Position numbers and translations under genes: made by a program. A stretch of DNA of 64,000 nucleotides, taken from positions 36,172 through 100,171 of IMG/VR virus record IMGVR_UViG_3300028873_000014, one strand, 5' to 3'. This DNA comes from a virus. Every line of letters begins with the position of its first letter. Within the stretch, counting starts at the first letter, position 1. A model generated the notes under the pieces. It worked only from the letters and a program-made list of their open reading frames with translations. It searched no databases and had not been told where the DNA came from. This document shows positions 11,076-51,983 of the stretch, piece after piece.

Positions 11076-12053
11076 CTACCTAATTTGTGTACAGGTAGCT
11101 TCAATGTTATAAACTACTGTTGTATATGTACCACTTGTTGTTTGAACAGTCAGGTTTGTACCTGCTTTACATCTGATATGTACAGGTATACCATTATAGG
11201 GAACTGCCCCACCAGCATTTGTAAGAGTTGTAGAAATAGTTCCGGCAAGATTACTAAAGCTGAGATTTTGTACTCTAGCTGTGTTAGTCTCATCTGTATA
11301 GTTTATAGTTACTCCAAAACTAAATAAAGTAGCTGTAGTGATATTAACATTAGCAGAAAGCACATAACTTGCATCTACAGCAGCTACACTACCACTTAAT
11401 ACACCACTTACCGCTGTTATCTGCCCTGTTAATCTATTACCAGCATTTGCAACACTGATGATACCTGTAGCATTAGGTAAGTATTGTATTTGATTACTAC
11501 CAAGTATACTATTCGTTACCGTGACTGAGTTACCTGCACTATTAGTTACATCTATTATTTGCATCCCTGTTTGTGTTATATTCAGAGAGTTGCTTGCAGT
11601 ATCCTGTAAGGATATAATTACAGAGGTTTGTGTGACTTGCATTAATGCAGAAAAATAAGGATTAAACCCATTAGAAGGACCTGCTGCCATATGTATAGCA
11701 GCTTGGGATAAAGCATCTGATGCATAAGTGTGAACAGCATAATAGTATACTCCCTGTGAGTTAGGCACACTCCATACTCGTATATCACCAGACCCATCTC
11801 CTTGAGCAAGATTTTGTCCTATTTGTACAGAACGGTAAGGAGTGCTTCCTGTAGATGGTCCAAAATACATATTATCTGTAGTCTGATTACCTTCAGTAAG
11901 TACTTGTTGTAAGGTTGGGGTACTTGTGCTCCCAGAGGTATTTGTACTAGTAGATATACCATTAACTCTACCTTTTAAGATATTTATGTTCTGTACACAC
12001 CACCATAGTTTTTCCAGAAAACCTTCTGGTGGTGGATTATTAGGATTACCCAT
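11076..12053 (-). CDS. Tail fibre/spike-like protein
   Basis: PTLQQVLTEGN motif; S/T/N/G-rich, beta-rich; located in the structural block. Confidence 0.6.
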   Translation of the reverse strand: MGNPNNPPPEGFLEKLWWCVQNINILKGRVNGISTSTNTSGSTSTPTLQQVLTEGNQTTDNMYFGPSTGSTPYRSVQIGQNLAQGDGSGDIRVWSVPNSQGVYYYAVHTYASDALSQAAIHMAAGPSNGFNPYFSALMQVTQTSVIISLQDTASNSLNITQTGMQIIDVTNSAGNSVTVTNSILGSNQIQYLPNATGIISVANAGNRLTGQITAVSGVLSGSVAAVDASYVLSANVNITTATLFSFGVTINYTDETNTARVQNLSFSNLAGTISTTLTNAGGAVPYNGIPVHIRCKAGTNLTVQTTSGTYTTVVYNIEATCTQIR

Positions 12054-12063
12054 AGTTCAAATT

Positions 12064-13032
12064 TTATAAAGTTGCTGGTGGAAGATAAAATGTTGTTGTG
12101 TTAATGGTACTACCATTTGCCCAGGTAGCTGTAATAGTAAATAGAGTACTCGATGTTAATGGATAACTTGAATTAGTTCTGGTTAGGGTAATAGTATTAT
12201 TCCTTAGTCCTAAAGGGGATTGAGGGAAAGATACTGCCCCCACTACAGAAGTAGCCGGATCAGTGACTGCGAGTGTTACATTATCATAAATTCCAGTACC
12301 TCCACTAAATAAGCTACCTTGTATCCATGATATAGCAAGATTACCTACCAATGCATTATTGTTAACATCCTGTTGGGTTACCTGAAAATTAGATAACACA
12401 AAAGAGGCATGGGATAAAGGAGAACCATTCCAGGGGGCTTTAGTACCAAAATAGAAACCAAAGTATTCAGGTGTAAGTAAGGCATCAAACTGTTGTAATC
12501 CCCCGCCATAGTCGAATTGTGGAGTTACGGCAGTAACTACGATATTAGATATAGAGTATGTGTTAGCAGTTGGTAAGGATATGGCAATTGTGGCACTTGT
12601 ATTAATACTAGCTGCAGGGTATATAAGATTGGTAAAGTTTACAGTAGTGGTTCCGGATGTAGCTCCCGAAGTAGTGGTTAATAAAAAGTTTCCTGATATA
12701 TACGTAGCATAAGGGTTTCCGTATACAGAACTAATAATAGCTTTGTAGTAAGAGTTTTGCCCTGGTTCCGGAATAATTTGTAAACCGAACCCAAGGTAAC
12801 TATTTATACCAAAAGGTTGTCCTGGGGAGTTGTTACCAGAACAGCAATTACTCTGTATGACTCCTTCATAATTAGCAGGAGCAAGTACAGGAATAGTTAC
12901 AGAAGTACTACCTGATGTAGTTCCGGAAGTAGTTGCTGTACTATATATAGGATATCCTTGCTGCCTATACAGGATATTATATCCACAAGCAGGTAAAGGG
13001 GCAGGATTAGTCCAAGTTAAACCTAAGTTCAT
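12064..13032 (-). CDS. FN3-like domain virion/fibre protein, S/T-rich
   Basis: N-terminal LTWTNP...GYNILYRQ FN3 pattern; TTSGTTSGS and TTSGATSGTT repeats. Confidence 0.55.
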   Translation of the reverse strand: MNLGLTWTNPAPLPACGYNILYRQQGYPIYSTATTSGTTSGSTSVTIPVLAPANYEGVIQSNCCSGNNSPGQPFGINSYLGFGLQIIPEPGQNSYYKAIISSVYGNPYATYISGNFLLTTTSGATSGTTTVNFTNLIYPAASINTSATIAISLPTANTYSISNIVVTAVTPQFDYGGGLQQFDALLTPEYFGFYFGTKAPWNGSPLSHASFVLSNFQVTQQDVNNNALVGNLAISWIQGSLFSGGTGIYDNVTLAVTDPATSVVGAVSFPQSPLGLRNNTITLTRTNSSYPLTSSTLFTITATWANGSTINTTTFYLPPATL

Positions 13033-13042
13033 AATCGTTAAT

Positions 13043-13591
13043 TTATGCTAATGTTACTATAATGTTTTGAGGGTCAGGGCAACTTGATAAAATACTAGTA
13101 GTAAATGTATATATAAATGTCTTGGAAAACTGATTGGCTGTAGGAGTAATAGTTAAGTAGTATTGAGTATTAGATGATAGTCCTACAAAAGTATCTGATA
13201 TCAATGTTGTTGGAGATAAAGTATGTGTTGCTATAATCTCCCCGGGAGCACTAAAAAGTGATAGAGTACATACATAATCAGTTATGGAAGCACCTAAATT
13301 ACCAAAGTAATACCCTACCGAACTATTAGTAGGACTGATTACAGGACCGGGGTCAGTAAAGTGAATATCCTGGATAATAGCTGATGTGGGGTTTCCAAGA
13401 GTAGCTGATACATTAACTACCTGTATATCATATAGCGTATTATCTATTCCTACAAAACCTACAGGGGTTGCTGTTCCCCCTGAAGTCTGAAAGGTGGTCC
13501 ATAGAGATGTACCAGATACCCGGTAAAGATATTTGTATGCAGTTGTTCCTGAGTTATTATCTACTGCTACCGTTATTACAAAATTTGCCAT
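13043..13591 (-). CDS. FN3-like domain virion protein
   Basis: YKYLYRVSGTSLW and GLSSNTQYYLTITP FN3 signatures. Confidence 0.6.
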   Translation of the reverse strand: MANFVITVAVDNNSGTTAYKYLYRVSGTSLWTTFQTSGGTATPVGFVGIDNTLYDIQVVNVSATLGNPTSAIIQDIHFTDPGPVISPTNSSVGYYFGNLGASITDYVCTLSLFSAPGEIIATHTLSPTTLISDTFVGLSSNTQYYLTITPTANQFSKTFIYTFTTSILSSCPDPQNIIVTLA

Positions 13592-13616
13592 AATTATATG
13601 ATCTTTAATATTTTTA

Positions 13617-14204
13617 TTAACAAGGTACTGGAGGTAATACGTTTCCTGTTCCTACCTGTATACAACAACCATTAGGGAAAGCCGATACAGGGCATTGACC
13701 ACTAGCTCCAGGTAAGTTATAGATATATGCACCACCTGAAGTAGCAGGAGCACAACACCATGTACTTACAGTAACTATAGGAGTACCCTTAGTTGCCGGA
13801 GGACAAGCAGATACAATATTGCATAAGGTAGCTTGTAAGGAAGCACTTGTACTGATCTGTGATAATACTGTACCAGCTAATGTGTTACACATCTTTTGGA
13901 ACATCGTTGTTACACTATCCCCACTATTAATACCAAAACAGTTGATGCCATTCCCCTGATAGGTAACACAATCTGTATATGTACTATCTACACATGATCC
14001 ACAAGGAATAGGTGTTACAGGATTACCATTACCATCAGTGCACTGACCACTTGGATATCCTAATGAAGGAGGAGTATATGTAGCCCCCGGGGGGCAACAC
14101 TGGCATAATACAGGTGCCGGAGTTATAGAATAATCAGGAGGACAGTTACAACTCTGCCCATTCGCACAATTATTACAAGGATATGAATTATTACAGTTAC
14201 ACAT
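13617..14204 (-). CDS. Cys-rich fibre/adaptor protein
   Basis: Very Cys-rich (MCNCNNSYPCNNC...). The C..S/T.CV...G segment resembles the N-terminus of 15410-16078. Confidence 0.55.
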   Translation of the reverse strand: MCNCNNSYPCNNCANGQSCNCPPDYSITPAPVLCQCCPPGATYTPPSLGYPSGQCTDGNGNPVTPIPCGSCVDSTYTDCVTYQGNGINCFGINSGDSVTTMFQKMCNTLAGTVLSQISTSASLQATLCNIVSACPPATKGTPIVTVSTWCCAPATSGGAYIYNLPGASGQCPVSAFPNGCCIQVGTGNVLPPVPC

Positions 14205-14211
14205 AGTAAGT

Positions 14212-15408
14212 TTATCTAAAAGTGATTATGTCAATATTTGCTGTTCCTGCTACAGAAATAGCCTGACCAAAGTTTATAACTACCCCACCAAGTATATATG
14301 AAAAATACGGTGCTTTACTAAGTATATATGTAGCATCGTAATTATCCTTAGCAACTATAGTAGCAAACCTTGGAGTGTAGGATAATCCGCTAACAGCAGT
14401 TATAGCAGTAGTTCCTGATGTAACTGGTTGGTTATAGTTAGTTACGTCATACCCAATTCCCCCCGGAGTAGAACTTGCAGTGTATAGGGTTTCGATCACT
14501 ACCTTACTGCAACTTTGACCTGTAGTGGGGTTACTAACATTAGAAGTAACCTGAACTGTATAAGAACTGGATGTTGGAGAAAGAGTAGTTCCAGAAGTAG
14601 ATATACTAATAGGAGTATTGGATAAAGAAGCTGCTGTAATACTAAAGGCTTGTTGATAATTATTACCAGAAGCATCGGTAATTTTTATCTGGGATTGATT
14701 CTGACTATCCCCAAAACCAGTAGGTATGAATGTGTACCCATTGAAGTATAGGTTAATAACAGGTCCTGATATCAATACTGCCTGGTATGCAACTTTAACC
14801 TGAGCACAAGTAGGAGTAATAGCAGCAAGGGCATTTGTGATACCTGCCCTTGCGTCCCCATATGCTATCCATTGGTTACTTTCAGAAGCAGCAATAGTAG
14901 TAGGATTAGTATTCCACCCCGATAGCCCTGACATAGTACTATTCTGTGAAAAGGCAGGTAAACTATTAAGATTTGTTGGTTGTGCAGCAATTGCCTGGGA
15001 AAGTGCTGTAGTAGTACCAAGAACATTGTTATACCCACATATATTAGCAACTGCATTTGCAACTACAACATTTATAGGAAGTACCTGGTTAACAGGACTA
15101 CTTAAACATCCTGCATTAACCTGTGGTATAGCAGTTGCACCAGAAGTTTGTATAGCAAGTACAGATGCTTGCAGGGTAGTAATTTCAGTGTTATATGTAT
15201 TAAGTAATGCAACTACCTGGTTATAATTATCGATCTGAGTACTAAGAGAAGCACCTATTAATGATATATATCCTGTAGTGGGGCTATCTGCAGGATATCC
15301 TACTGGATAAAGTTGCGTAACAATGTTGCCATTACTATCCTGGAATCTAAGATTCTTAGAAAGTTGTAAAGGAAAATTAGATACATATTGAGGAGGTGTA
15401 TTGTTCAT
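14212..15408 (-). CDS. Tail fibre-like protein with coiled coil
   Basis: Heptad segment (YNQVVALLNTYNTEITTLQASV); S/T-rich with TSG motifs. Confidence 0.55.
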   Translation of the reverse strand: MNNTPPQYVSNFPLQLSKNLRFQDSNGNIVTQLYPVGYPADSPTTGYISLIGASLSTQIDNYNQVVALLNTYNTEITTLQASVLAIQTSGATAIPQVNAGCLSSPVNQVLPINVVVANAVANICGYNNVLGTTTALSQAIAAQPTNLNSLPAFSQNSTMSGLSGWNTNPTTIAASESNQWIAYGDARAGITNALAAITPTCAQVKVAYQAVLISGPVINLYFNGYTFIPTGFGDSQNQSQIKITDASGNNYQQAFSITAASLSNTPISISTSGTTLSPTSSSYTVQVTSNVSNPTTGQSCSKVVIETLYTASSTPGGIGYDVTNYNQPVTSGTTAITAVSGLSYTPRFATIVAKDNYDATYILSKAPYFSYILGGVVINFGQAISVAGTANIDIITFR

Positions 15409-15409
15409 A

Positions 15410-16078
15410 TTAAGTTAGATTAAAAGTTATAGCACCAAGTGTTATAGGATAGTTGTATGAAATATTTGAAGGAGGCCCATCATAGTTTATCAAAACTTGC
15501 AGTAGTCCTCCAGGGTTTATAATAGCATAGAATCTAAGATATAAATAACTATTCTGTTGTCCTGGGTTAGGTATAGCAATAGAGTCTATTAGTCTTACCT
15601 GTGCTTTAGTAAATGTAGTTGGTAAACAGCTTGTTGAAACTGTACACAAGTTTATTAAAACATCCCCAACACTTCCAGATCCTACCCCGGGGTAAATAGT
15701 ATTAAAGTTTATATCGAAACACCCCCGTAATTTCAGGTCCCCCTCATTAGTGAACTTATACATAGGGTTATCACAAGTCACACCTAAAAAAGCACCACTA
15801 TCCGTAAAGAAATTCTGTAATCCAAATAATGACCATGTGCAATTTGCCCCTGCACCAGAAGTAGGAATACCTGCACTAAAGTCTTTCCATCCTGCAGCAG
15901 CACAAGGTCCTGTAGTATTTGAGCTATTAACAAGTGTTACCAGACTATTTAATACATCTGTTATAGAAGCACCTGCACATAAGTTTAACCCTGGCAATTG
16001 GGTACTGAGTATGACACAATTTGACCCAATAGGATCAGGACAACTTTTGCTGGTAATATTAGTAGTTACAGGTTCCAT
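15410..16078 (-). CDS. Short tail fibre-like protein
   Basis: N-terminal CPDPIGSNCV...LCAGASITDVL segment and C-terminal PMYKFTNEGDLKLRG head-like domain. Confidence 0.55.
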   Translation of the reverse strand: MEPVTTNITSKSCPDPIGSNCVILSTQLPGLNLCAGASITDVLNSLVTLVNSSNTTGPCAAAGWKDFSAGIPTSGAGANCTWSLFGLQNFFTDSGAFLGVTCDNPMYKFTNEGDLKLRGCFDINFNTIYPGVGSGSVGDVLINLCTVSTSCLPTTFTKAQVRLIDSIAIPNPGQQNSYLYLRFYAIINPGGLLQVLINYDGPPSNISYNYPITLGAITFNLT

Positions 16079-16123
16079 AATTTTATTTTATAATCAACAT
16101 TTTTATTTATAACCAAGCTGTTG

Positions 16124-17173
16124 TTAAGGTCTCATAAACCACAATACAAGTGCTGAACCAAATATAACTGTTATTACTTGCGATGCATTACATCCTACTC
16201 CTGTAGTAGTATATCTAACAGTTGTAGTTCCAGCGGATACTCCAGTAACTATTCCAGATGAAGATCCTACTGTTGCGATAGCTGTATTATCTATACCCCA
16301 TCCTCCACCTGTAACTCCAGGACTGATAGCAAGTGCAGATGTTCCAGTTCCGGATATAGTAAAAGTTCCAGTAATAACTGGAGTTGCGTTATCTGTTAAT
16401 GTTTGAGTTGTTGAACAATGCGAGCCGGATGCTGTATATGTTATTGTGCTAGTTCCTGTAGATACTCCTGTTACTAACCCAGATGTTGAATTTACAGTTA
16501 TGTGTGCGCTACTGCTTGCCCATGTACCACCTGTAAAACCAGATGATAATGTAGTTGTAGATGTCCCGCAAATTATAAATGATGTTCCTGTAATAACAGG
16601 GTTAACTAGAAACGAAGTGGTTATAGTACATCCAGATGCATTATATGTAATAACAGTAGTTCCAGATGATACACCATAAATAATTCCTGTTGTTGCTCCT
16701 GATGTAGCTACTGTAGTATTACTACTACTCCAAGTTCCACCTAATGTTGCATCAGATAATGTAGTTGTGAAGCCAGAACAAACTGATGCTGTTCCAGTTA
16801 TAGGATCGGGTGTAGGATTTACAGTTAAGTTACCTGTATATCCATCATCTTCATAAGAACTCTCTGTATAATTAAAAACCCCTGTTTCGGTAACAACTAC
16901 CTGATAAAAATTACCGTTGTCGCTATATGGTACAGATGTTAATGAATAAGTTGTATTTGTAGCACCAGTAAGATTGCTAAATGTACTTCCGCCATCTAAT
17001 GATAGTTGCCATTGGTAGGTAAGTACATCTCCACCAACTATAGGACTTGCCGTTACTACGTAGGATGCATTTTGTCCAGCACAAATAGTTACATCTCCAG
17101 AAAATGAAGTAATAACCTGGGCTGATACAGACCCACTAAGGCACAATAGTAATATGAATAGTTTTAGTCTCAT
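16124..17173 (-). CDS. Signal-peptide-bearing Ig-like (Big_2-type) repeat protein
   Basis: MRLKLFILLLCLSGSVSA|Q signal. One I-set-like Ig (LTYQWQLSLDGG...YQVVVT) followed by three repeats of ITG....C...T.TLS....GGTW.SS...ATV...G.VTGVS.GT..ITY. Confidence 0.75.
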   Translation of the reverse strand: MRLKLFILLLCLSGSVSAQVITSFSGDVTICAGQNASYVVTASPIVGGDVLTYQWQLSLDGGSTFSNLTGATNTTYSLTSVPYSDNGNFYQVVVTETGVFNYTESSYEDDGYTGNLTVNPTPDPITGTASVCSGFTTTLSDATLGGTWSSSNTTVATSGATTGIIYGVSSGTTVITYNASGCTITTSFLVNPVITGTSFIICGTSTTTLSSGFTGGTWASSSAHITVNSTSGLVTGVSTGTSTITYTASGSHCSTTQTLTDNATPVITGTFTISGTGTSALAISPGVTGGGWGIDNTAIATVGSSSGIVTGVSAGTTTVRYTTTGVGCNASQVITVIFGSALVLWFMRP

Positions 17174-19545
17174 TAGTATGTCGTATAAAGTTGACCAACC
17201 GCAAAAAATTCGCTATTATTAGCATTGTATATCCACTGCTGAGTGATAACCTGCCCTATTACCGTTGTGGCTGCTGGTGTCAATGCGGTAGGCGATACCC
17301 CCGGTTTAAACTTAGTTCCGTAAGTGATCGCTCTTGCGGTTCCGTTGTCTTGGTAGGTGATAAATAATGCCTGATTGTTCTGCCAGCTCCCTGCAGGATT
17401 GTTTACCGTAATGGCTCCCGATGCTGCATTTATTTCATAGCTGATGGGGATCACCCTATTTGCGACTGCCGAATAGGGGGTAAGGCTTGCCACGTAGGCA
17501 ACACTACTGTCGGGTGAGGTAATTGAGATCACACCACCCGAAATATTTATCGGGTACGTACTGGTATATGTCGTTGGGGCTGTTCCGCTTGATGCCGATG
17601 TTACCCGTCCTTTAGAATCTACAGTAACTGTAGAATAGGTATATGTGGCAGGTGAGGCGTTTACGGTAACTATCGTGGGGTTTGGATAAGACCCCGTTAA
17701 ATCACCTCCTGCTGTACCTGAGGGTGCCGCTGTAATGGTATTGTTTGATCCATAGGTAATAGGGGTAGCGTTAACACTTGTTGCTGTAGTGGCGTTTGTA
17801 CCACCATATCCTATGTCTAATTTAGTTCCCTGCCATGTACCAGTCCCAATAGTTCCTACACTTGTTAAAGAAGAGGTTACCACAGTCGGGTTAAGTGTCG
17901 TTGTTGTTAATGTATTCGCTGATGCTGTTATAGTATAAGCATTACCCGTTGTCATTGGGGTAGTATTTACGGTTAGTGTTTGTGCTGCCGGAGCGATGTT
18001 AACAGTAGTTACCGATGTTACTCTACCTTGCGCATCTGTAGTTATTTCAGGTATCGTCGTACTACTTCCATAAGTTCCAGATGTTCCTACAGACGGCATA
18101 GATATCGTACCGGATGTAGTAATAGTTCCTCCAGATAACCCAGTTCCTGCTGTTATGCTAGTTACAGTACCACTTGCAGGGTTTACCCAAACATATCCAG
18201 TTCCACCAGTATTAACTTCAAGCATTTGGTTCGCACTACCAATGGGTATTTCTCCATAAACTGTCGATGAAGTTGCATAAGGAATAGCATATTGCGTTGT
18301 AGTTGATTTATTCAATCCTCCATTTGCTGTAGGTAAAATTCCTGTAACGCTAGTAACCAAAGATACAGGGGCAACATTAATAGCTTGGGTCATTGTATTA
18401 TATGTCAAACCTGTTCCTATTTGTATCTCCTGATATGCTGTAGTATTACCAGAACCTAAGAGAACTTCATTAGTTGATGCTGGTTGTAATTTAGCATAAG
18501 TTACTGCATTATTAGCAATATCCCCTGTAACAACTTGTCCCCAGGATGGATTACCTGAAGCATTGCCGTGTAAAAGAGTTGTATTAGTTCCCTGATTATT
18601 AAATAATGATGATGCTAATATAGGACTAAAATATGAAGGAGCACCGGATGACGTTCCCCCTAAGATAGTATTGGCTGATATTGGAGTTAGTGAATAAGAT
18701 ATGACAGGGGTAGTCGTACTTGTTGTTACAGATGATGTAAATACCGGAGATAAGTTCCCGGATGAAACACTTGTTACTGTACCAGATCCACCTGATGTTA
18801 TACTATATGATGTTACTCCGGTTATTTGACCCTGAGCATTTACCGTATACCCAGGTATAGAAGTAGAACTACCATAAGTACCGGGAGTTACAGTAGTATT
18901 GGTTATAGCTACTGAATAAGAAGGTGTTCCAGATAAAGATTGCGAAGTATTACCACTTACCGTTATACCATTACCTGCAGTCACATTCATACTTCCTATA
19001 GGAGTAGCACTGATAGTATTGTTAGACCCATAAGTTATAGGTGTAGTATTGATACTTGTTTGCACAGAGCTATTAGTTCCCCCATTAGCAATAGGAAGTA
19101 TGCCAATAACCCCTGTAGTTAATGGTAATCCTGTTTCGTTAGTACCAACTAAAGCAGATGGGGTTCCTAAGTTCCATGTTCCGGGTAATATACCATTGGT
19201 ATATAACGATAAAACTGGTGTAGTTCCTCCAGTGCTGTTTATCTGGTTAGTAGTTCCGGACACACTAGTTACTCCACTCCCTCCCCCACTACCAGTATAC
19301 CATGCCCCATTAGAATAGTAGTAAAAAGTATTGTTGCTGCTATTTATATAAACCAGGCCATTTGTAACCCCATTACAAGATAAGGTTCCTACAGAAGGAA
19401 CTGATGCATACACAGGTATACCAAGACCTAAAGAAAACGTTCCTCTATTCCAGGTATTACCATAGTTAGAAGAAGGCAAACAAGGTTGCTGCCCCTTTAC
19501 AAAACAGGATATGAAAAGTAATATGATAATTAAGTAGTATCTCAT
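17173..19545 (-). CDS. Signal-peptide-bearing tail-fibre/adhesin-like repeat protein
   Basis: MRYYLIIILLFISCFVKG|Q signal. Repeats GTVTSV, GILPxANGG, GTYGSSTxIP..TxxAQGxxT and AGGDLTGSYPNPT; C-terminal QDNGTARAITY fibre-tip-like domain. Confidence 0.7.
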   Translation of the reverse strand: MRYYLIIILLFISCFVKGQQPCLPSSNYGNTWNRGTFSLGLGIPVYASVPSVGTLSCNGVTNGLVYINSSNNTFYYYSNGAWYTGSGGGSGVTSVSGTTNQINSTGGTTPVLSLYTNGILPGTWNLGTPSALVGTNETGLPLTTGVIGILPIANGGTNSSVQTSINTTPITYGSNNTISATPIGSMNVTAGNGITVSGNTSQSLSGTPSYSVAITNTTVTPGTYGSSTSIPGYTVNAQGQITGVTSYSITSGGSGTVTSVSSGNLSPVFTSSVTTSTTTPVISYSLTPISANTILGGTSSGAPSYFSPILASSLFNNQGTNTTLLHGNASGNPSWGQVVTGDIANNAVTYAKLQPASTNEVLLGSGNTTAYQEIQIGTGLTYNTMTQAINVAPVSLVTSVTGILPTANGGLNKSTTTQYAIPYATSSTVYGEIPIGSANQMLEVNTGGTGYVWVNPASGTVTSITAGTGLSGGTITTSGTISMPSVGTSGTYGSSTTIPEITTDAQGRVTSVTTVNIAPAAQTLTVNTTPMTTGNAYTITASANTLTTTTLNPTVVTSSLTSVGTIGTGTWQGTKLDIGYGGTNATTATSVNATPITYGSNNTITAAPSGTAGGDLTGSYPNPTIVTVNASPATYTYSTVTVDSKGRVTSASSGTAPTTYTSTYPINISGGVISITSPDSSVAYVASLTPYSAVANRVIPISYEINAASGAITVNNPAGSWQNNQALFITYQDNGTARAITYGTKFKPGVSPTALTPAATTVIGQVITQQWIYNANNSEFFAVGQLYTTY

Positions 19546-20153
19546 TAGTATGCTGTAATTGTATATGTCTCTGTTGTGTTAAATAATCTTCCTCCAAGTA
19601 ATGTAATACCTCCTGTAGTGCTATTGAAAGAATAGTCTACAGTATTAGTTAACGGTCCATATCCCGAAAGTTCTATAGATACTGACTTACCTTCCAGTAA
19701 TGGTAATCCTGTAGTACTGTTAATCGGTAAAAATGTACTAGACCCATTAATAGGACCACCTACATTACCTACAGTAAATTGTTCTATAATCAATGATGAA
19801 ACAGGAGTATTAGGTGAAGGTAAAACTACCTGAACACTTTGTAAGTTAACATTCTGTATAGGGTTATAGCAACCCTTACTCTCATAGGCACTATCTACCT
19901 GGGGGAATGGCGACCCTCCATAAACAGGATAAGCAATGATATTTACGATAGTATTCTGTGCAATTTTACAAAGAGTGTTTTGACAATCAGATTCTTTCTG
20001 CCAATCAGCAAGTACTTTCTTTCGATTAATAGCATAATAGGAAACAGGATCATAACCAACCTTAACCCCCCATTCTCCTGCCATATACATAGCAAAATAG
20101 AGACTGGTGTAGTCACTGTTAATTGATCGTAACTCTTTCCTATAATTATCCAC
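19545..20153 (-). CDS. Tail hub-like structural protein
   Basis: Synteny after the hub and small Cys-rich genes; beta-rich C-terminus. Confidence 0.45.
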   Translation of the reverse strand: MDNYRKELRSINSDYTSLYFAMYMAGEWGVKVGYDPVSYYAINRKKVLADWQKESDCQNTLCKIAQNTIVNIIAYPVYGGSPFPQVDSAYESKGCYNPIQNVNLQSVQVVLPSPNTPVSSLIIEQFTVGNVGGPINGSSTFLPINSTTGLPLLEGKSVSIELSGYGPLTNTVDYSFNSTTGGITLLGGRLFNTTETYTITAY

Positions 20154-20358
20154 TGTTTCTATTCTTTAAAAGTTGTTCTATACTTTGTATCAAACTCTGT
20201 TGCATACTAACGTTTTGTGTACTTTGTACTATAGCTTGTGAACTTCTTTCTACTCCTGTGTAGCACTTACTACAGCATTTAATTCCTGAACTGGTAGTCA
20301 TTTCTCTACAACCTGTACAACTGCAACAATCAGTTCGGCAACTCGGACACAATGCCAT
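20146..20358 (-). CDS. Small Cys-rich (zinc-binding-like) protein
   Basis: CPSC..DCCSC.GC.......KCCSKC; translationally coupled to its neighbours. Confidence 0.6.
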   Translation of the reverse strand: MALCPSCRTDCCSCTGCREMTTSSGIKCCSKCYTGVERSSQAIVQSTQNVSMQQSLIQSIEQLLKNRNSG

Positions 20359-20361
20359 ATA

Positions 20362-20925
20362 CTAATAATTTACACAATTTGGTTTACGCCTACTCATCTT
20401 TTCCATAAGAGCCAATGCATAACGGTATTGATTAATACCGTCTTCGCACTGGTGTTTATCATTCACATTTACCTGTCCACTGATTAAGTAGTTACGTATA
20501 GTATCTATATTCTTAAGATAATACTCTGTTTCTGTATCAGGTAAACAATCCCCGAGATCAACTTCACACAAAAGATGGTTTAGCCTATTTATAGCATGGG
20601 TGATCCTAAGGTATTGATACTCTACCCATACCTGAGTATTGGGGGAAACAGAATATCGCAGGTTATATATGCCATCTGGCAGATTAGGGCATATATCATT
20701 ACATCCCCCGGGAGCAGCTACTCCTATAGTACAGGCATTAAGTACTAAACGAAAGTTCTGTTGGGTAATACTGATTATAGTAGGTGTGCCATAACCAGGA
20801 GGGGTTATCTGTAGGTTCTGACAGGTTACAGGAATATTAGCAGCATATATAGAAATATCCTCTACAATGAAAATACCTTCATTGTATACCGGAGGAACTT
20901 CAAGTTGTAAGATATGTTTTGCCAC
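20362..20925 (-). CDS. Tail hub protein (crAss-like)
   Basis: LQITPPGY and NLPDGIYNLRYSVSPN motifs; follows the auxiliary capsid gene. Confidence 0.65.
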   Translation of the reverse strand: MAKHILQLEVPPVYNEGIFIVEDISIYAANIPVTCQNLQITPPGYGTPTIISITQQNFRLVLNACTIGVAAPGGCNDICPNLPDGIYNLRYSVSPNTQVWVEYQYLRITHAINRLNHLLCEVDLGDCLPDTETEYYLKNIDTIRNYLISGQVNVNDKHQCEDGINQYRYALALMEKMSRRKPNCVNY

Positions 20926-20942
20926 TATTTTTAGAAATTAAA

Positions 20943-20975
20943 AGAGGGAAAAGGAGTTTTTATCCTTCTCCCTCT
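20943..20975 (-). terminator. Intrinsic terminator after auxiliary capsid gene
   Basis: Minus-strand stem AGAGGGAGAAGGA/TCCTTTTCCCTCT followed by a T run. Confidence 0.75.
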
Positions 20976-20994
20976 GTTTATAAATACTTACTTT

Positions 20995-22311
20995 TTATAT
21001 AGTCTGTAACTGTATAAAGTTTGCAGATAACGTCAAACAGCTATTTATCAAAGTGGTAAATGGTGTGATCACCGTACCTGTTGGGAAATAGATTGTTATT
21101 GCATACTCATCATTATCTGTAACAGACTGGCTATTATATGGGCGGAATACGTTAAACTTTAGATACAAACTATCGTATAGACCCTGTAGAGCAACATTAG
21201 GCATAACCCAATCATCCTCAATAGTCCTCATCCTTAAGCTACCTACCCATTGGTTATCGGGGAAATCCTCTTGTTTGTACCTATTCCACTCTATTAAGTT
21301 ACGGGCAACTTGCTGACCTATACCACGAACCTGTAAAGGAGCAGTAATCTGTGTCCACATAGTAGGTACTGATGTATCAATAGTAGTGTTTATTACACAA
21401 GGATCAGCAGTTTGTGAGAACAATGAACCTTCTACGTAAAGCGGTTCTATTGTATATAGATCAGTTGGAGAGAAAGTACAAGTCCCAAAAGTGGTCTGTA
21501 CATATGCTACAGTTATCTGTAACCCCGCAACAACAGATATAGGATTAGATGTATTAGGTACATACGCACCTGCATTTAATACAGCAGTCTGTAATGCGGC
21601 GTTACCTGGAGTACCTGGAGGCGGTGTACCATAAGTACCTGCAGTTGCCCTAATCACATCATATGCAGAGAATACTTCTACTGCTGTACCTGCTGATGTT
21701 TGTATGAATACCTGGGGATAGATAAAGCTGGTTTCATAAGGATCTTGTGTAATACCATCCTTCCACTGCAACATTACTGATGCAGCATCCACATTACTGG
21801 TAGTGCAGCCAGAAGTACATCCTGTACCGCAACATCCTGAAAATGCTGTAAATGATTTATAATATTGATGGTTCAGAAACTGGAGAGCAGGAGCACCAAG
21901 TAACTCTAACTGAAATTGATAGGTAGTACCACACTGGAAAGCTGGCCCTACTGTAGAACCAGAGGTAAGATTCCAACCAAATACCGATACCTGATTTTGA
22001 GGTGCCTGTGCTTGGGTATAGATAAAGGCAGTTACCCTGGACCAATCTATGATCTTGGTATAGTCAGGTTCTTGTAAACCCCCCCATAGCGGAGTAATCT
22101 GATCTATTAAATGCCATGACCCAGAAGCAATGATACATGGTGTTAAAGTAGCTGCACTAATTGCAGTACCATAAACTCCTGTTTGCGGGGGGCATGTAAA
22201 TATACCAAGTTGCCCTTTGGTAAGAAGATCTGTAGTTCCTGAAGTTGTGTAGTTAACAGTGTTGCTAACTGGGTTGTTTAACAGGTACGGTTGAAAACTA
22301 TCTGGTAGCAT
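20995..22311 (-). CDS. Auxiliary capsid protein (crAss gene 73-like)
   Basis: 438 aa. Contains GSWHLIDQITPLWGGLQE, FQCGTTYQFQLELLGAPALQFLNHQYY and LRMRTIE; synteny; has its own putative promoter and terminator. Confidence 0.7.
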   Translation of the reverse strand: MLPDSFQPYLLNNPVSNTVNYTTSGTTDLLTKGQLGIFTCPPQTGVYGTAISAATLTPCIIASGSWHLIDQITPLWGGLQEPDYTKIIDWSRVTAFIYTQAQAPQNQVSVFGWNLTSGSTVGPAFQCGTTYQFQLELLGAPALQFLNHQYYKSFTAFSGCCGTGCTSGCTTSNVDAASVMLQWKDGITQDPYETSFIYPQVFIQTSAGTAVEVFSAYDVIRATAGTYGTPPPGTPGNAALQTAVLNAGAYVPNTSNPISVVAGLQITVAYVQTTFGTCTFSPTDLYTIEPLYVEGSLFSQTADPCVINTTIDTSVPTMWTQITAPLQVRGIGQQVARNLIEWNRYKQEDFPDNQWVGSLRMRTIEDDWVMPNVALQGLYDSLYLKFNVFRPYNSQSVTDNDEYAITIYFPTGTVITPFTTLINSCLTLSANFIQLQTI

Positions 22312-22460: not shown

Positions 22461-22910
22461 ATGAGAACTAAAGCAAAATATGAAGGAAAGCATTTTGGGC
22501 TGTTAACTGTAATGGAATGTTTAATAGATTCTGATGGTAAGAATAAAGGAGGTGTATGGTTATGTAAATGTAAGTGTGGTGGGACTATCAGTCTTGCAGG
22601 GTATCGTTTACATAATAGAGATAGCTGTGGTTGTCTTACTAAAAAAGCTACTGAGATACGGGCAAAGAATAATAAAAAGCCCCAGGAGGAAAAAGATATC
22701 ACAAAGGCATATAGTAATTACAAAAGAAAAGGTGGAGAACTAACTAAGGAAAAATGGTTAAAAGCTATTAAAAAACCCTGCATCTTTTGTGCAAGCACTT
22801 TACTTAGGACAGATACTACAATATGCAATACCTGTTTCACTATGATGGGAAATCTTTCAGAAAATAAATTCCTGGAACAGGTTAAGATAATAGCGAAAGT
22901 TAGTTGTTAA
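22461..22910 (+). CDS. HNH-type homing-endonuclease-like protein, possibly degenerate
   Basis: GKHFGLLTV...WLCKCKCG...SCGC N-terminal domain and CxxC...CxxC, with a shortened nuclease core. Inserted antisense to the late operon. Confidence 0.6.
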   Translation: MRTKAKYEGKHFGLLTVMECLIDSDGKNKGGVWLCKCKCGGTISLAGYRLHNRDSCGCLTKKATEIRAKNNKKPQEEKDITKAYSNYKRKGGELTKEKWLKAIKKPCIFCASTLLRTDTTICNTCFTMMGNLSENKFLEQVKIIAKVSC

Positions 22911-27636: not shown

Positions 27637-28548
27637 TTAATAATTATTCGGTAATGATAATAACTCTAAATACTTTTGGTACTTTCTATCCAGATAAACT
27701 GTGGCATCTTTATACAGTAAATTCATTATTTGCATTGCTGGTTTTCCTGTAGAATCCATACTATATAACTCATTTTCTCTTGGGGCTTTCTTTGTATTAG
27801 ATGCACATGTTATACCCGATATCTTTATAAAATTTAAGAACTCGTCTATAGTACTATTATTACCGCTTAACCCTACTTTAGGATAATAGTAAACTTTTGC
27901 ATCAGGTTTATCGTTATTAGCACCTTTGCTATGTGAAAGACCTACCCAACCATCACCATCAACTACCCCTCTCCAAAAATCCCTAGAATATTTTAAAAGA
28001 TCATGAGGGGTTATACTATATGTTTTATTAGAAGTAAACCCTAAATCTTTTAATCTATTATAGAGTTGAGTATCTGCTACTTTTACTCTAAACATCTTAC
28101 CTCCAAAAGTAATCTGCCCCTTTAGTCCTCTATTCTCTTTTTTAGGTGTACAGTCTGTAATATTTAACTGACCTCCTAAAAACTGGTTAAACTTTTCTAA
28201 ATGACCTTTATCTACTTCCGCAAGAGCAACCCCGACTGTTGGTGCTTTTTTTTCAATACTTCCATCTGCATACAGAAAACCTATCCAGTACAGTGATTCA
28301 GGGGTTAGAATATCAAAAGCATCACTTTTGACATATTTTATCCCCATACACAACCTTTGAGCTTCTCCTTTAGTACGAAGTATTCCCATATCTTTAATCT
28401 CTCTTCGTAAAGTACCTCTATCTGTATTCATTCTTTCAGAAACTTGAATAGCAGATAATCCCGATAAATAAAGAGCTTTCATCTCTTGTCTCTGTTCTTC
28501 TGTATATACTGTTCTTTTCATTGAACAAAGATACAAAGAGATTTTCAA
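27637..28548 (-). CDS. Free-standing LAGLIDADG homing endonuclease (likely start 28521)
   Basis: Two motifs, YWIGFLYADG and FWRGVVDGDG, plus an N-terminal HTH. Confidence 0.9.
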   Translation of the reverse strand: MKISLYLCSMKRTVYTEEQRQEMKALYLSGLSAIQVSERMNTDRGTLRREIKDMGILRTKGEAQRLCMGIKYVKSDAFDILTPESLYWIGFLYADGSIEKKAPTVGVALAEVDKGHLEKFNQFLGGQLNITDCTPKKENRGLKGQITFGGKMFRVKVADTQLYNRLKDLGFTSNKTYSITPHDLLKYSRDFWRGVVDGDGWVGLSHSKGANNDKPDAKVYYYPKVGLSGNNSTIDEFLNFIKISGITCASNTKKAPRENELYSMDSTGKPAMQIMNLLYKDATVYLDRKYQKYLELLSLPNNY

Positions 28549-28644: not shown

Positions 28645-30282
28645 TTATCCACCATATGCCTTTTTTGTAACGACATTGTAGGGAACTATCTTGAGTAGCT
28701 TTGTATTGTCTATTACCTGCAGACTCTTGTGATCCATAGTCATACGAACTTTGTACCCGGAGAAGTCACCAGAGCTTTGGAAACCCTTAGTACGTCCCAT
28801 ATAGTCAGTATCACCATTGATATACCTCCACTTAAAATCATCCTCATCACCTGCACGTTTCATTAAGAAGATGTTATCTTCCGGGTTATCTGTAATATCC
28901 CATATGATGTAACAATAAGATGATGTACGATAACCATCTACCCAGGGGTTTTCTATATCATTAGCTAGTACCGGGTCAAGTGCAGGATTAACTACAAATT
29001 TGAGGTTAGCAAGGAAAGGTATTGTATAAGATGTGTAGGCAAAACCAAAGTCCAGGTCAAGTCCTTTACGGGTAATTGCGCCAACTTCGGAAGCATTTAT
29101 GATCAGACCTGAATTGATAGCCATTGTCTTAATAGCATTATTCATCTGGCGCATACCTGCAATACCTGTCTGTACGATCAACTTACGGTCAGGATCTGGA
29201 CCTACAAAGTCCACCCTCCCCCTGAAGAAGTTGTAAACCTGATTCTCAATGATGTTGGGAGTAAATGTGCCGATGTTATATACAGTCTTAAATGCATTAT
29301 CCATCTGCCTCCAAAGACCTACTGTAGTCCTTACCATATCAGGACCATCGGAAGTTGTTCTGCCCCCAAGACCCCACATAAGGTTATTTTCTACATCTTC
29401 TACCATTTTAGTGATAGCTGCTTGTTCTATAGAAGTAACCAGGGTCTTAGTGATCCATCCTTCTTCCATAGCCTTTGCAATTCCTGCCTGTCCTAATCTT
29501 CCTGCAGCATCTGGTATAGATACTATTGAAGGATCACGTTTATCAGTGTCATGAAGCTGCCATATCTCACGCATTGGTATACCCTTGGTTTTTACACCTT
29601 TTGCGTTCATCATAGCTTCTGCACGATTACTTATAGAGTAGGAAGCATTTGCTACACCTCCACCTACGAAGTTGTAGTACTCTCTTATACCTGTACGGGT
29701 AAATACTTCTGAGTAACGTTCCCCATAATCAACTGCCTTAACAGAAGATTTACGGAAGAAAGAAGTTTGTGGAGTAAGGTATTTGTTATCAAGATAAACA
29801 CCGTTATTGTTATTCATCAACCTTACGGTATAAATGAACTCGTTATTACCTAGAGAGATGATCTCATTATCGCATACTCGCATTTCCAAACCTGACATCT
29901 TATCATAAGAGATAATGTCTGTGTAGGAAAAAGCTCTACGATTAAATGCCAACTGGAAAGGTTGACCTGCTAAACCTTTCTTGGTATTAGTAGGGTTTAT
30001 GTCCCTGGTAATGTGGGGCATATCATTAATGATAGGGGAACTCCAGGTATACCGGCCCATTGGATCTTGTACTGTCTTTATGTTCTTGCCCCCGAAAGAA
30101 GACATGAGGTATAGGGGGGTTGCTGTCTGCTGCATCTGAGACCAGTACTCTATGATACCAAGATCATCAGGTTTAGCATTTTGCATAATATTGTACAGGT
30201 GATAACTGTCAATATTAGCTCCGAGATCATAGACCTTATCACGGAAGAATACCGAATTTAAATTTTGGGACGGCGTTGCCAT
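28645..30282 (-). CDS. Major capsid protein (crAss-like)
   Basis: 545 aa with IDSYHL, YGERYS, LMWGLGG, GLWRQMDN, VQTGIAGM and FVVNPALD; order portal-scaffold-MCP. Confidence 0.9.
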   Translation of the reverse strand: MATPSQNLNSVFFRDKVYDLGANIDSYHLYNIMQNAKPDDLGIIEYWSQMQQTATPLYLMSSFGGKNIKTVQDPMGRYTWSSPIINDMPHITRDINPTNTKKGLAGQPFQLAFNRRAFSYTDIISYDKMSGLEMRVCDNEIISLGNNEFIYTVRLMNNNNGVYLDNKYLTPQTSFFRKSSVKAVDYGERYSEVFTRTGIREYYNFVGGGVANASYSISNRAEAMMNAKGVKTKGIPMREIWQLHDTDKRDPSIVSIPDAAGRLGQAGIAKAMEEGWITKTLVTSIEQAAITKMVEDVENNLMWGLGGRTTSDGPDMVRTTVGLWRQMDNAFKTVYNIGTFTPNIIENQVYNFFRGRVDFVGPDPDRKLIVQTGIAGMRQMNNAIKTMAINSGLIINASEVGAITRKGLDLDFGFAYTSYTIPFLANLKFVVNPALDPVLANDIENPWVDGYRTSSYCYIIWDITDNPEDNIFLMKRAGDEDDFKWRYINGDTDYMGRTKGFQSSGDFSGYKVRMTMDHKSLQVIDNTKLLKIVPYNVVTKKAYGG

Positions 30283-31751: not shown

Positions 31752-34499
31752 TTACTTACTCTTACTGTCTTTAACTTTAACTTTATGGGCTATTTGAGTA
31801 CTCTTTAACTGTTCTTTGGTTCTATTCTCTTCAGCATTGATCTTCTGTTTAGTTAGTTGCTGATCTACTTCTTTCTGTTTAGACCCCACTACAAACTTCT
31901 GTTTCTCCAGGTCCATCTTATCTGTATGTTGCTGTTGACTCTGCTGTATTTTAGCAGTTGCTAATTGATAAGCATCTTCTCCTGCTTGTGGAGGGTTTGA
32001 TCCGGCTGCTTTTGCAGCAGCAAGTAATTCAGTTTCTCTCCATTTTTCTTCTCTGTCTTTCTCATTCTCTCCAGCTTCAAACTCTTGTTTCATCTGTAGT
32101 AATTGTTGCTGGTGTTGTTGTTCTGCCTGTGCTTCCTGTTGTTGCGCCTGTTGTTGTGCTTGTTTTTCCTGTATAACTTTCTGCTGGATAGTATCTATAG
32201 TATTATTTAAGATAGATAATACAGGAATTTGTATGGCCTTAATTTTATCAAAGATGTCTATACCGCTGCTATCGTTTACCAACATCTGTTCAATCTTCTG
32301 CATGATGAACCGTGAGTTTACAGTAGTCTTGGCTTTAACATTAAAATCTCTACCCATCAACTTAGTTCCATCTATTTCAAAGAAAGCCTTTTCGTCCCCC
32401 TGAGTGATATACTGTAACCTCAAAGAAGGATTGGTAGAATTATAGTACTGGGCAAGATCTGTACGCATCTGGTGTACTCTTGGCATAAGTTCATCACAGT
32501 GTTGCGAGAATAGATATTCTGTATGTGAATAGGAAGCAGCTTTTGCCTGGTTAATCCCTGTAGCAGTTTGTTCCTGATCAATAGGCGTTCCTGTTCTGGT
32601 AGGGTTCATACCTACAGAGTCAAGACCTGACATCTTAAACCAATCAGATATTTTCATAAGGCCAAGTAATCGTTCTGTCTGGGAAAGATCCAATCGTTGC
32701 ATATGACCTTCCCTAATAGGATTACCTTCTTTATCCCTAATAGAAGCAAGTGGAAGTATTTGACCATTCTTCATTACTGTAATTGCACTAGCTAAGTTAT
32801 TTGGTCCCCAATCTTCCCCAAGAGACTGTTTAGGGAGTGAGTTAGGATCAAGAGTAAGGATAACACCGTAGTCATTAACCATAGTGTCCTGGATAAGGTT
32901 ATTTGCCATATTATAACCTATCTGCCAAGGCTTTAGGTTATCCATCATTGACCTACTCTTAGTATTGTGGTCATTAAATATTCTCCCCTCTACAGGTAAC
33001 TTACACCCATAAATGTTGTTGTCTCCTTTGAACTGGAAAGGTAACCTCCCCGGTACAGGTGTGTTAATGCCCAGATAGATAGGTGCAAATTCTGCAGAGG
33101 TTCCTTGCCATCCAATTGCAGGAGCATTGGTTCCTATCCGCACTCCCCCCCATGTCTCATTAACCCATAGGGGGTCAAGATGTTCACCATATACCAAATT
33201 CGCTTTACTCTTTTCTTTAAAGAGTACTGTGTTATACATAGGTTTTACAGTTACCTTGTAGTCTTCTCCCACAATATCTGTAAATAAATTACCCTGATCA
33301 TCAACTTTAGTTAAGTGAAAAAATTTGCGCTCTGTTTTCCAGTAAATAGTAGAAATACGTAAAAGAAACTCACCATTGATATTAACAAGGTCTTCACCTT
33401 CATTGAGTATCTGTTTAGTAATATCCCCCCCAAAACCAACATCATCTAATACAGACATAGCCTGTCTCATACCTATACCCGGCCCTGTTCGGTTCCAGTC
33501 ATAACTTTTATGACCATCCCAATACTGATCAGGTTCTTTACCATCAAGTGCATACCCGGCAGCTCTTGCACCATGAATAGTGTTAAGCGTTAACAACTGT
33601 TCTTCACTCATCATCCATCCATACTTATCTACAGTATCGGGGACGGTAAGATAATCTATACATCCTACCCAGGCGGCATCTGATATATATCGTACAGAAG
33701 GACTCTTTCTATAAAATACTTGTGGAGGGTTCCACGTTTCTATACAGTAGTCATTATCCATCATCCGGAAGTGCCAGAACTCCCGGTCAGTAATGAGCAT
33801 GTTCCTGAAATTAACTCTCTCTAACTCAGGTATGGTAAATCGTTCATTATCTACCTGCATTTGGTGTTCTGCCCATTCCTGGTAGATATTACGATAACTC
33901 TTGTTGTAGTATTTTTGTATTTCTGGTAATGACTGAATAGTCTTAGGGTCCATCATCTGTTTCCCTTGTTCGCTATCGGGGGAAAGACCCATTTGCTGCA
34001 ACTTCATTAATTGGTTAATAGCTGCTTTTGCCTCTAGTGCTTTTTCTATATCTGCCCTTTTAGCTTCCAGCATTTCATTAACCCCTATATCACTCTTATC
34101 ATCAAATGTCATATGAGATGCTCTTTTAGCAAACTCATCAGTAAGAATGTTTATAACAGTACTTGCAAAAGGATAGTTCTTAAGTTCCATAGACTCAAGT
34201 TCTTTTCCGGCATGTTCTTCAAGAGCATCGATCATATCCGCATACTCATTATCCATTCGGATATAGTCGTTCTTCTCTATCTCCCCTATAGCAAGTTTGT
34301 AGTTCTTGAGCATCCAGTTAGCGTTTTGCCGTAACTGTTTTAGACCCTGCCAGTCTACATAAGATAGCATCTGTGCTGCCCATTCTGCATCCTTTTCTTT
34401 GTTGGGAAGGAATTGAAGTGGCTGGTAGAAGCCCGAAGAGACGCCTAACTGTTTGAGTTTCTTACCTTGCTTTAACTGATACCCGCTAATTATCTCCAT
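31752..34499 (-). CDS. Portal protein
   Basis: 915 aa with QPLQFLP, LITDREFWHF and YGCKLPVEG motifs and a Q-rich C-terminal coiled coil. Confidence 0.9.
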   Translation of the reverse strand: MEIISGYQLKQGKKLKQLGVSSGFYQPLQFLPNKEKDAEWAAQMLSYVDWQGLKQLRQNANWMLKNYKLAIGEIEKNDYIRMDNEYADMIDALEEHAGKELESMELKNYPFASTVINILTDEFAKRASHMTFDDKSDIGVNEMLEAKRADIEKALEAKAAINQLMKLQQMGLSPDSEQGKQMMDPKTIQSLPEIQKYYNKSYRNIYQEWAEHQMQVDNERFTIPELERVNFRNMLITDREFWHFRMMDNDYCIETWNPPQVFYRKSPSVRYISDAAWVGCIDYLTVPDTVDKYGWMMSEEQLLTLNTIHGARAAGYALDGKEPDQYWDGHKSYDWNRTGPGIGMRQAMSVLDDVGFGGDITKQILNEGEDLVNINGEFLLRISTIYWKTERKFFHLTKVDDQGNLFTDIVGEDYKVTVKPMYNTVLFKEKSKANLVYGEHLDPLWVNETWGGVRIGTNAPAIGWQGTSAEFAPIYLGINTPVPGRLPFQFKGDNNIYGCKLPVEGRIFNDHNTKSRSMMDNLKPWQIGYNMANNLIQDTMVNDYGVILTLDPNSLPKQSLGEDWGPNNLASAITVMKNGQILPLASIRDKEGNPIREGHMQRLDLSQTERLLGLMKISDWFKMSGLDSVGMNPTRTGTPIDQEQTATGINQAKAASYSHTEYLFSQHCDELMPRVHQMRTDLAQYYNSTNPSLRLQYITQGDEKAFFEIDGTKLMGRDFNVKAKTTVNSRFIMQKIEQMLVNDSSGIDIFDKIKAIQIPVLSILNNTIDTIQQKVIQEKQAQQQAQQQEAQAEQQHQQQLLQMKQEFEAGENEKDREEKWRETELLAAAKAAGSNPPQAGEDAYQLATAKIQQSQQQHTDKMDLEKQKFVVGSKQKEVDQQLTKQKINAEENRTKEQLKSTQIAHKVKVKDSKSK

Positions 34500-39811: not shown

Positions 39812-39815
39812 AAGT

Positions 39816-40454: not shown

Positions 40455-40457
40455 TAT

Positions 40458-46311: not shown

Positions 46312-46312
46312 A

Positions 46313-51608: not shown

Positions 51609-51983
51609 CTATACATTTTCCAAAATCTTTTCTGTTTTTGGTATAGTCTTAAACCTTGCCTCTATGTGATATTCATTGAATAGCATGTACACATCTTCCC
51701 CCTGACGTAATGCACCCATACTATTAGCTTTGAAATAGAATACAGTTACCCCCGGTAGCAAAGACTTATCTTCTACCTTGGCACCAACATTAACTATTAC
51801 CCCCTTAGTTAACATAGTCTGTTTGATCTTATCTTCAGTTGTCTCGGGGAGGAGCACACCACCTTTAGTCTTAGGTAAAGATTCAGGGCAAGGTTTGATC
51901 AGTATCTTATCTGCCTGTACTTGTATGTCAAGGATATCTTCTACTTCCGGTATCATGTAGATACTCATTACTGGTTGTTCCAT
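51609..51983 (-). CDS. groES: GroES-like co-chaperonin
   Basis: DKILIKP, KTKGGVLLP mobile loop, GVIVNVG and PGVTV motifs. Confidence 0.8.
   Translation of the reverse strand: MEQPVMSIYMIPEVEDILDIQVQADKILIKPCPESLPKTKGGVLLPETTEDKIKQTMLTKGVIVNVGAKVEDKSLLPGVTVFYFKANSMGALRQGEDVYMLFNEYHIEARFKTIPKTEKILENV

Follow-up and report, generated by a model that had tools for sequence, protein, structure and literature searches.

Experiments have established glycosylation of virion proteins in only a handful of phage systems, and none of these, to our knowledge, has a defined short acceptor motif. In the chlorovirus PBCV-1, a virus-encoded, cytoplasmic machinery of several glycosyltransferases (GTs) with a sugar methyltransferase builds capsid-surface glycans on non-canonical acceptors of Vp54. 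Proteoglycan core proteins have Ser-Gly acceptors that are extended by beta4GalT7 (a GT7 enzyme) and that depend on acidic residues close by and on a GT14 xylosyltransferase. The general O-glycosylation of Bacteroidota is periplasmic, acts on exported proteins and uses the three-residue sequon D-(S/T)-(A/I/L/V/M/T). As summarized in PMC11256854 and PMC12619734, two phage-encoded GTs are enough to glycosylate virion proteins of the cluster F1 mycobacteriophages Che8 and Rita (Freeman et al. 2023), whose major capsid and tail-tube subunits carry the glycans at their C-termini. We describe here a short motif, TSG(T/S/A)T, in an auxiliary capsid protein and eight fibre- or Ig-like proteins of a crAss-like phage, encoded in a 64,000-nucleotide stretch of DNA (positions 36,172 to 100,171 of IMG/VR record IMGVR_UViG_3300028873_000014; hereafter the window, numbered from its first nucleotide).

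Our results support the conclusion that TSG(T/S/A)T is a protein-level motif that is selected and read by some common factor. We favor, tentatively, a reading in which the motif is an O-glycosylation acceptor on outer virion proteins, used by the phage's own soluble GTs. Like the mycobacteriophages, whose glycans are covalent and form a shield on virion surface proteins made in the cytoplasm, this phage encodes predicted soluble GTs. Unlike in the mycobacteriophages, a five-residue motif in internal loops of the auxiliary capsid and fibre- or Ig-like proteins provides the candidate sites, the major capsid protein (MCP) has no TSG, and the island has seven or more GTs as well as methyltransferases. 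PBCV-1 is a eukaryotic virus with glycans N-linked to Asn of its major capsid protein, whereas N-x-S/T is not enriched in the nine proteins described here (68 observed, 58.8 expected; 76 of 1000 shuffles reached 68). The Ser-Gly dipeptide and a predicted GT7 beta-1,4-galactosyltransferase are shared with the proteoglycan system, but acidic residues are scarce here, a GT14 xylosyltransferase was not seen, and what is specific to the clade is the Thr preceding Ser-Gly. The likeness to Bacteroidota O-glycosylation is that of a sequon common to many unrelated proteins; the Bacteroidota sequon itself is not enriched in the nine proteins (5 observed, 8.8 expected).

Enrichment of TSG in nine proteins of the late operon

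The window is the final 64 kb of a linear record of 100,171 bp (about 76% complete) from a distant crAss-like phage, whose portal protein matches those of Leptolyngbya phage Lbo-JY46 (29%), Cellulophaga phages phi17:2 and phi4:1 (23%) and gut crAss-like phages (about 21%). The late operon, on the minus strand, runs from terL through the portal and MCP genes and a gene for a 438-aa product to eight tightly packed open reading frames (ORFs; 19545 to 11076) and then large virion proteins. The motif set comprised the eight ORFs and the 438-aa auxiliary capsid protein, 3221 aa in total, all poor in Lys, Arg and Glu (K/R/E):

11076-12053, minus strand: K/R/E-poor virion protein, 325 aa; 2 TSG (residues 39 and 306); no Pfam or PHROG match
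12064-13032, minus strand: K/R/E-poor protein, 322 aa; 4 TSG as two tandem pairs; N-terminal segment FN3-like by eye
13043-13591, minus strand: K/R/E-poor protein, 182 aa; 1 TSG (residue 36)
13617-14204, minus strand: Cys-rich, K/R/E-free protein, 195 aa; 1 TSG (residue 155) in a C-terminal extension; orthologues are without the extension
14212-15408, minus strand: fibre-like protein, 398 aa; 3 TSG (residues 88, 271 and 330); long N-terminal helix and two FN3-like domains
15410-16078, minus strand: K/R/E-poor protein, 222 aa; 1 TSG (residue 73)
16124-17173, minus strand: Ig-like (Big_2 / NUP210-like) protein, 349 aa; 2 TSG; signal-peptide-like N-terminus
17173-19545, minus strand: long repeat-containing fibre protein, 790 aa; 3 TSG; signal-like N-terminus
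20995-22311, minus strand: auxiliary capsid protein, 438 aa; 3 TSG (residues 23, 116 and 166)

TSG was enriched in these proteins relative to composition. Every instance listed in the original prediction was present, all on the minus strand, and there were three more: STSGLV (16124-17173), ITSGGS (17173-19545) and CTSGCT (20995-22311). Per-protein shuffles gave an expectation of 5.7 TSG, and none of 5000 reached the 20 observed, so the comparison with composition-shuffled sequences that had been proposed as a check came out in favor of the motif. TSG followed by Thr, Ser, Ala or Gly was found 18 times (2.6 expected), in contrast to TSG followed by any other residue, which was not enriched (2 vs 2.9 expected). 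Among all 8000 tripeptides TSG was the most enriched (Poisson 2e-6); TGS and STG, which have the same three residues in other orders, occurred 3 times each. The fuller motif TSG.T was found 13 times (0.9 expected; 0 of 2000 shuffles), and in the four motif-rich genomes described below Thr was at +4 in 65% of 81 TSG sites vs 17% of other xSG (Fisher 4e-14).

Neither local composition nor a DNA-level motif accounted for the signal. Shuffling in blocks of 10, 15 or 25 residues gave 6.4-7.2 expected TSG, at most 1 of 3000 shuffles reached 20, and the enrichment was thus unchanged. ACNTCNGG was found solely in frame 0 on the sense strand of the nine genes, and therefore the signal is at the level of protein. 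The Ser codon of TSG was TCN in 81 cases and AGY in 10, as compared to 159 and 84 at the remaining xSG of those ORFs (Fisher 1e-5; window and relatives G001, G002, G005 and G006); in the window alone, 19 of 20 TSG Ser codons were TCN. This bias is not a DNA motif.

The high-K/R/E ORFs of the genome had 5 TSG vs 6.4 expected. The rarity of the motif in portal, MCP and terminase, which had been taken as meaningful, is uninformative: composition predicts at most 0.2 TSG for each of these proteins.

28645-30282, minus strand: MCP, no TSG
31752-34499, minus strand: portal
35292-37487, minus strand: terL

The nine proteins had been called unrelated, and BLAST among them found no pairwise homology; however, several have FN3- or Ig-like domains. 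The eight fibre-like proteins had almost no matches in Pfam or PHROG. The proteins from 16124-17173 and 17173-19545 have strongly hydrophobic signal-peptide-like starts (KD19 of 1.95 and 1.81), unusual for virion proteins, and the 195-aa protein from 13617-14204 lacks Arg and Glu and contains some two dozen Cys.

Distribution of the motif among relatives

The motif was enriched in some relatives of the phage and at or below expectation in others. A single-protein scan of viral contigs found no close relatives, and a metagenome scan gave nine loci, mostly short. The auxiliary capsid protein had 63 metagenomic homologues (36-77% identity), an alignment-based scan gave 28 IMG/VR loci, and we compared 11 whole records. 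The ingroup was nine genomes (G000, which is the window, G001 to G006, G014 and G019) and the outgroup included G008, G009, G012 and G017. TSG summed over the K/R/E-poor ORFs of each genome, relative to expectation, was as follows:

Motif-rich (TSG the top tripeptide in each): G000 3.0-fold, G001 5.2-fold, G002 3.6-fold, G006 4.7-fold
Intermediate: G005 1.9-fold; G014 2.1-fold with a collagen-like (G-T-S)n protein set aside
Unenriched: G019 1.3-fold, G004 0.56-fold, G003 0.24-fold
Outgroup: G012, G009 and G017, 0.6-1.65-fold

A tree built from five genes placed the four strongly enriched genomes in one clade, with the four island-poor genomes as its sister and G005 apart. The orthologues in motif-poor relatives had the same folds and the same make-up, rich in Ser, Thr, Gly and Asn and poor in K/R/E, with similar Thr content, and had TSG ratios of 0.24-1.3; a general turn bias is therefore not the whole story. 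We rejected a generic beta-turn bias of fibres rich in Ser, Thr and Gly as the sole cause of the enrichment, as the sister clade, the outgroup and the fibres of phi17:2 were all at expectation. No orthologue of the Ig-like protein (16124-17173) was found in any relative examined.

An apparent 7.5-fold enrichment in G014 was due mostly to the protein that was set aside. This is a 560-aa fibre protein (L058/L059, 33926-35608) with about 80 central Gly-X-Y triplets, mostly G-T-S, and 38 TSG. It is the orthologue of the protein from 17173-19545, with an N-terminal domain that matches the window's 790-aa protein.

Conservation of the sites and loss of Thr

Sites in the auxiliary capsid protein were conserved over long distances. 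TSG at residue 23 was kept in nearly all of the 63 homologues, down to 36% identity, with varying flanks, and residues 116 (T-SGST) and 166 (C-T/S-S-G-C) were largely kept. The homologues had 2-5 TSG each vs about 0.3 expected. Around the third site (residues 160-169, CCxxxC(T/S)SGC), four Cys were invariant in 23 representative homologues, in a region of low model confidence; the cluster may bind a metal or form a disulphide knot.

In other proteins it was the Thr of the motif that was specific to the clade. The family of the fibre-like protein from 14212-15408 had 136 TSG vs 25.9 expected over 59 full-length homologues, and sites 88, 271 and 330 read TSG in 33, 34 and 27 of the 59. At site 88, Ser was present in 55 of 59 and Gly in 51 of 59, and Thr alone was clade-specific. 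Orthologous sites that are TSG in the motif-rich clade were ISG, ASG, QSG, TTG or TAG in the sister clade. The site of the 13043-13591 protein was TSG in G000, G002, G005 and G006, TTG in G001, and IPA, IDS or IAP in the sister clade.

One lineage lost Thr jointly from several of its proteins. The gene tree for the 14212-15408 family nests a motif-poor lineage within the motif-rich diversity, and this lineage lost Thr stepwise at the three sites (ISG TSG TSG, then LSG VSG TSG, then ISG ISG SGT); the same lineage lost Thr in the auxiliary capsid protein too. Homologues P0082, P0085 and P0091 represent transitional lineages of this stepwise loss, and P0049, P0056 and P0059 represent separate motif-rich lineages. 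Such concerted loss across proteins is what would be expected if selection by a single trans-acting reader had relaxed or reversed. In the K/R/E-poor ORFs of G003 and G004, Thr preceded Ser-Gly in 3 of 99 cases vs a Thr content of 11% (binomial P 0.003), which hints at avoidance rather than mere loss. The motif unit was also duplicated in tandem independently, in the 12064-13032 protein (TSGTTSG at residue 35 and TSGATSG at residue 121, the second an insertion found in this phage alone) and at the N-terminus of the auxiliary capsid protein of a distant subclade, as TTSG(F/Y)TTSGG.

Structural settings of the sites

We used monomer models of the auxiliary capsid protein (AlphaFold, pLDDT 77.8) and of the 14212-15408 protein (pLDDT 84). 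The label auxiliary capsid protein held up: the best solved match in Foldseek was phicrAss001 7qof_a (E 1.7e-10, probability 1.0; TM 0.46/0.57), whose gene is in the same neighbourhood, downstream of that for MCP. The two proteins differ in length (438 aa here vs 333 aa in the matched chain of PDB 7QOF) and have 14% sequence identity. A fold search with the 14212-15408 model gave weak FN3 matches only.

All six TSG sites in the two models were at loops or at the ends of secondary-structure elements. Residues 23, 116 and 166 of the auxiliary capsid protein were all in predicted loops. In the fibre-like protein, site 88 was at the C-terminus of a helix of 45 residues, site 271 came after a strand, and site 330 was in a hairpin loop within one of the two FN3-like domains. 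Further settings were the Big_2 repeats of the 16124-17173 protein and the Cys-rich protein.

These settings bear on an explanation that is purely structural, in which Ser-Gly is a turn or cap, the flanking Thr is a lineage preference fixed by descent, and the island of transferase genes serves DNA, host glycans or something else. Ser and Gly were conserved in all relatives and Thr alone varied, mostly to Ile, Ala, Leu, Val or Gln; Thr and Ile or Val are interchangeable beta-branched residues, and beta-sandwich proteins often have Ser-Gly turns with Thr-rich strands on either side. In addition, both TSG of the 16124-17173 protein fall in the Big_2 repeat pattern 'sG.vtgvs.Gt', the motif-rich genomes are essentially one clade, and G005 has an island without strong TSG enrichment. 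On the other hand, the sites are in at least five different settings, for which one structural cause of Thr is unlikely, and Thr content was equal between the clades. The repeated tandem duplication of the motif unit, the joint loss of Thr in one lineage, the depletion of Thr before Ser-Gly in G003 and G004, and the association of TSG with Thr at +4 also argue against it. We consider the purely structural explanation less likely than glycosylation of the motif.

The transferase genes and their distribution

The GT genes of the phage (41015-47410) encode proteins of the GT25, GT11, GT2 (twice), GT7 and GT-B/GT4-like types and are in two adjacent groups:

38022-45187, minus strand: variable glyco-island adjoining terL; an NAD epimerase, a GIY-YIG homing endonuclease, two methyltransferases (FkbM-type and TylF-like), DUF5672+GT25, GT11, GT2, GT7 and one unknown
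45191-47410, minus strand: core transferase genes; a GT2-like protein, an unknown 183-aa protein and a GT-B/GT4-like protein (phrog_7162)

The GT7 (beta4GalT-like) protein (43888-44526) matched mammalian B4GALT1 at 7e-25 and B4GALT7 at 8e-21. In sequence searches of the PDB the GT-B-like protein had no match and the GT25 protein none that was useful. The three genes of the core region were present in 9 of 9 ingroup genomes. Between them and terL, the slot held a hypervariable island of 1 to 12 genes in the nine genomes:

G006: nine genes, eight orthologous to island genes of the window
G002: about ten genes
G005: twelve genes (largest)
G001: six genes, non-orthologous but analogous (GT2_4, GT2+GT7C, a methyltransferase, GT11)
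G014 and G019: one gene each (GT92/GT2_4-like)
G003: two genes
G004: four genes

Enrichment of the fuller motif coincided with a particular pair of transferases. GT11 and GT7C occurred together in exactly five ingroup genomes (G000, G001, G002, G005 and G006), and in these five TSG.T was found 13 times against a shuffle mean of 1.0, 20 against 0.8, 8 against 0.5, 12 against 0.6 and 5 against 0.7, each in 0 of 1000 shuffles. In the four ingroup genomes without the pair, the counts were 2 against 0.2, 2 against 0.65, 1 against 0.5 and 2 against 0.4, and the outgroup was at expectation. Among the nine ingroup genomes, TSGxT enrichment (7- to 26-fold) was thus confined to those whose islands have GT11 and GT7; three of the four others were not significantly enriched and G014 was borderline (2 sites vs 0.22). 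The Mann-Whitney P for motif vs island was 0.016, a value that overstates the association given that it represents one or two evolutionary events. The comparison of relatives with and without GT cassettes that had been suggested pointed in the expected direction, as TSGxT was enriched only with GT11 and GT7, but included no GT-less close relatives: only outgroup genomes (for example G008 and G012) lacked every GT family searched, and these were unenriched.

Three genes of the homing-endonuclease type were present: GIY-YIG/NUMOD3 (39032-39811) within the glyco-island, NUMOD3 (34511-35272) between portal and terL, and a phrog_4645 endonuclease (27637-28548) adjoining the MCP gene. Two ORFs of unknown function (22461-22910, plus strand, and 51609-51983, minus strand) were the sole genes that by BLAST were found in G001, G002 and G006 and in no other relative.

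The island might instead glycosylate phage DNA or remodel glycans of the host envelope, with no link to virion proteins, a possibility that is compatible with the other alternatives to virion glycosylation. Phage GTs most commonly serve in DNA glycosylation or serotype conversion (PMC12619734, PMC13326640). However, none of the island proteins had a membrane-like segment, the island had no flippase or polymerase, and its genes are co-oriented with and adjoin the late structural operon. A search for a Thymidylat_synt-type hydroxymethylase (PF00303) found no match in G000 (76% complete), G002, G005, G019 or G012 (the last three complete). In addition, GT7, GT11 and GT25 enzymes with sugar O-methyltransferases build branched, capped glycans, whereas the glycans known on DNA are mono- to trisaccharides. 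We consider this role improbable as the island's only function.

Some other trans-acting reader (phosphorylation, acylation, an assembly-factor docking site or a ligand-contact motif) seems least probable, because, although concerted gain and loss across unrelated proteins needs a common reader without naming one, none but the GTs co-varies with the motif, the clade-confined genes are just the two small ORFs, and the cargo enzymes of crAss-like phages presumably do their work inside the host, once ejected.

Scarcity of Lys, Arg and Glu

The poverty in charged residues that had been described is real, with K/R/E summing to 2-5.5% in the nine proteins, as compared to 8-13% in the tail fibres of Cellulophaga phage phi17:2. 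It could not be tied to the motif: motif-poor relatives were equally K/R/E-poor, and it is therefore a trait separate from the motif.

In the tree of the auxiliary capsid family (P0001-P0063, L002-L029), K/R/E was 5-9% in the GT-bearing ingroup vs 10-13% in the GT-poor outgroup, with the exception of the P0049 subgroup (7-8%). This difference indicates that charge depletion of this particular protein tracks the transferase module.

Discussion

If TSG(T/S/A)T is an O-glycosylation acceptor, soluble phage GTs would act in the cytoplasm, before or during assembly of the virion, and would place a first sugar on the Thr (or Ser) of the motif. The enzymes of the island (the beta4GalT-like GT7, GT11, GT25, GT2, the two methyltransferases and the epimerase) would then elongate that sugar and add methyl groups, giving a glycan coat. 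Since Thr is clade-specific and Ser-Gly is structural, we infer that Thr is more likely than Ser-Gly to be the acceptor or the specificity determinant. The phage's soluble GTs are the sole candidate readers that co-vary with the motif, and the position of the island in the late operon beside terL, the lack of membrane segments in its proteins and the lack of a hydroxymethylase count for a role on virion proteins. The original prediction of a shared signal read by a priming GT thus stands in that the motif is real, conserved and accompanied by a soluble multi-GT cassette; none of the GTs was identified as the priming enzyme.

Several results weigh against glycosylation of the motif. The four enriched genomes are one clade with G005 apart, and therefore the association of motif and island amounts to one or two evolutionary events rather than a statistical sample. 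No GT was confined to motif-rich genomes by BLAST and no single GT tracked the motif; the motif-poor sister clade retains three or four GTs. The island of G001 is not orthologous to that of the window. In G005 the island is the largest, yet TSG is enriched only 1.9-fold and the frequency of Thr before Ser-Gly is at background, and G014, which is without GT11 and GT7, keeps two TSG in the auxiliary capsid protein as well as its (GTS)n protein. Ser-Gly itself is a structural turn common to all relatives, and SGT was mildly enriched even in those that are motif-poor. Several sites may be in distantly paralogous FN3-like loops and so be less independent. The separation of K/R/E poverty from the motif belongs with these points, and the glycan itself is putative.

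Based on the conservation of the sites and the co-variation with GT11 and GT7, we believe that glycosylation by the phage's own soluble enzymes is a plausible, if tentative, function of the motif. It is possible, though less likely than not, that the full picture is that of a true sequon used by a soluble phage transferase, in which this environmental clade's capsid accessory protein and all of its fibres are coated with methylated glycans, made with animal-like GT7, GT11 and GT25 enzymes, that replace the absent charged residues.

A short internal acceptor motif that is common to many virion proteins, if confirmed as such, would be new relative to mycobacteriophage glycosylation, and this would be the first sequon-directed system for virion glycosylation in a phage. 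It would allow glycosylated virion proteins to be predicted from sequence in metagenomic phages and would account for why these surface proteins are so extremely poor in K/R/E. The variable island beside terL would then be a candidate glycan-diversifying locus, varying the virion surface against recognition by the host or in the environment.

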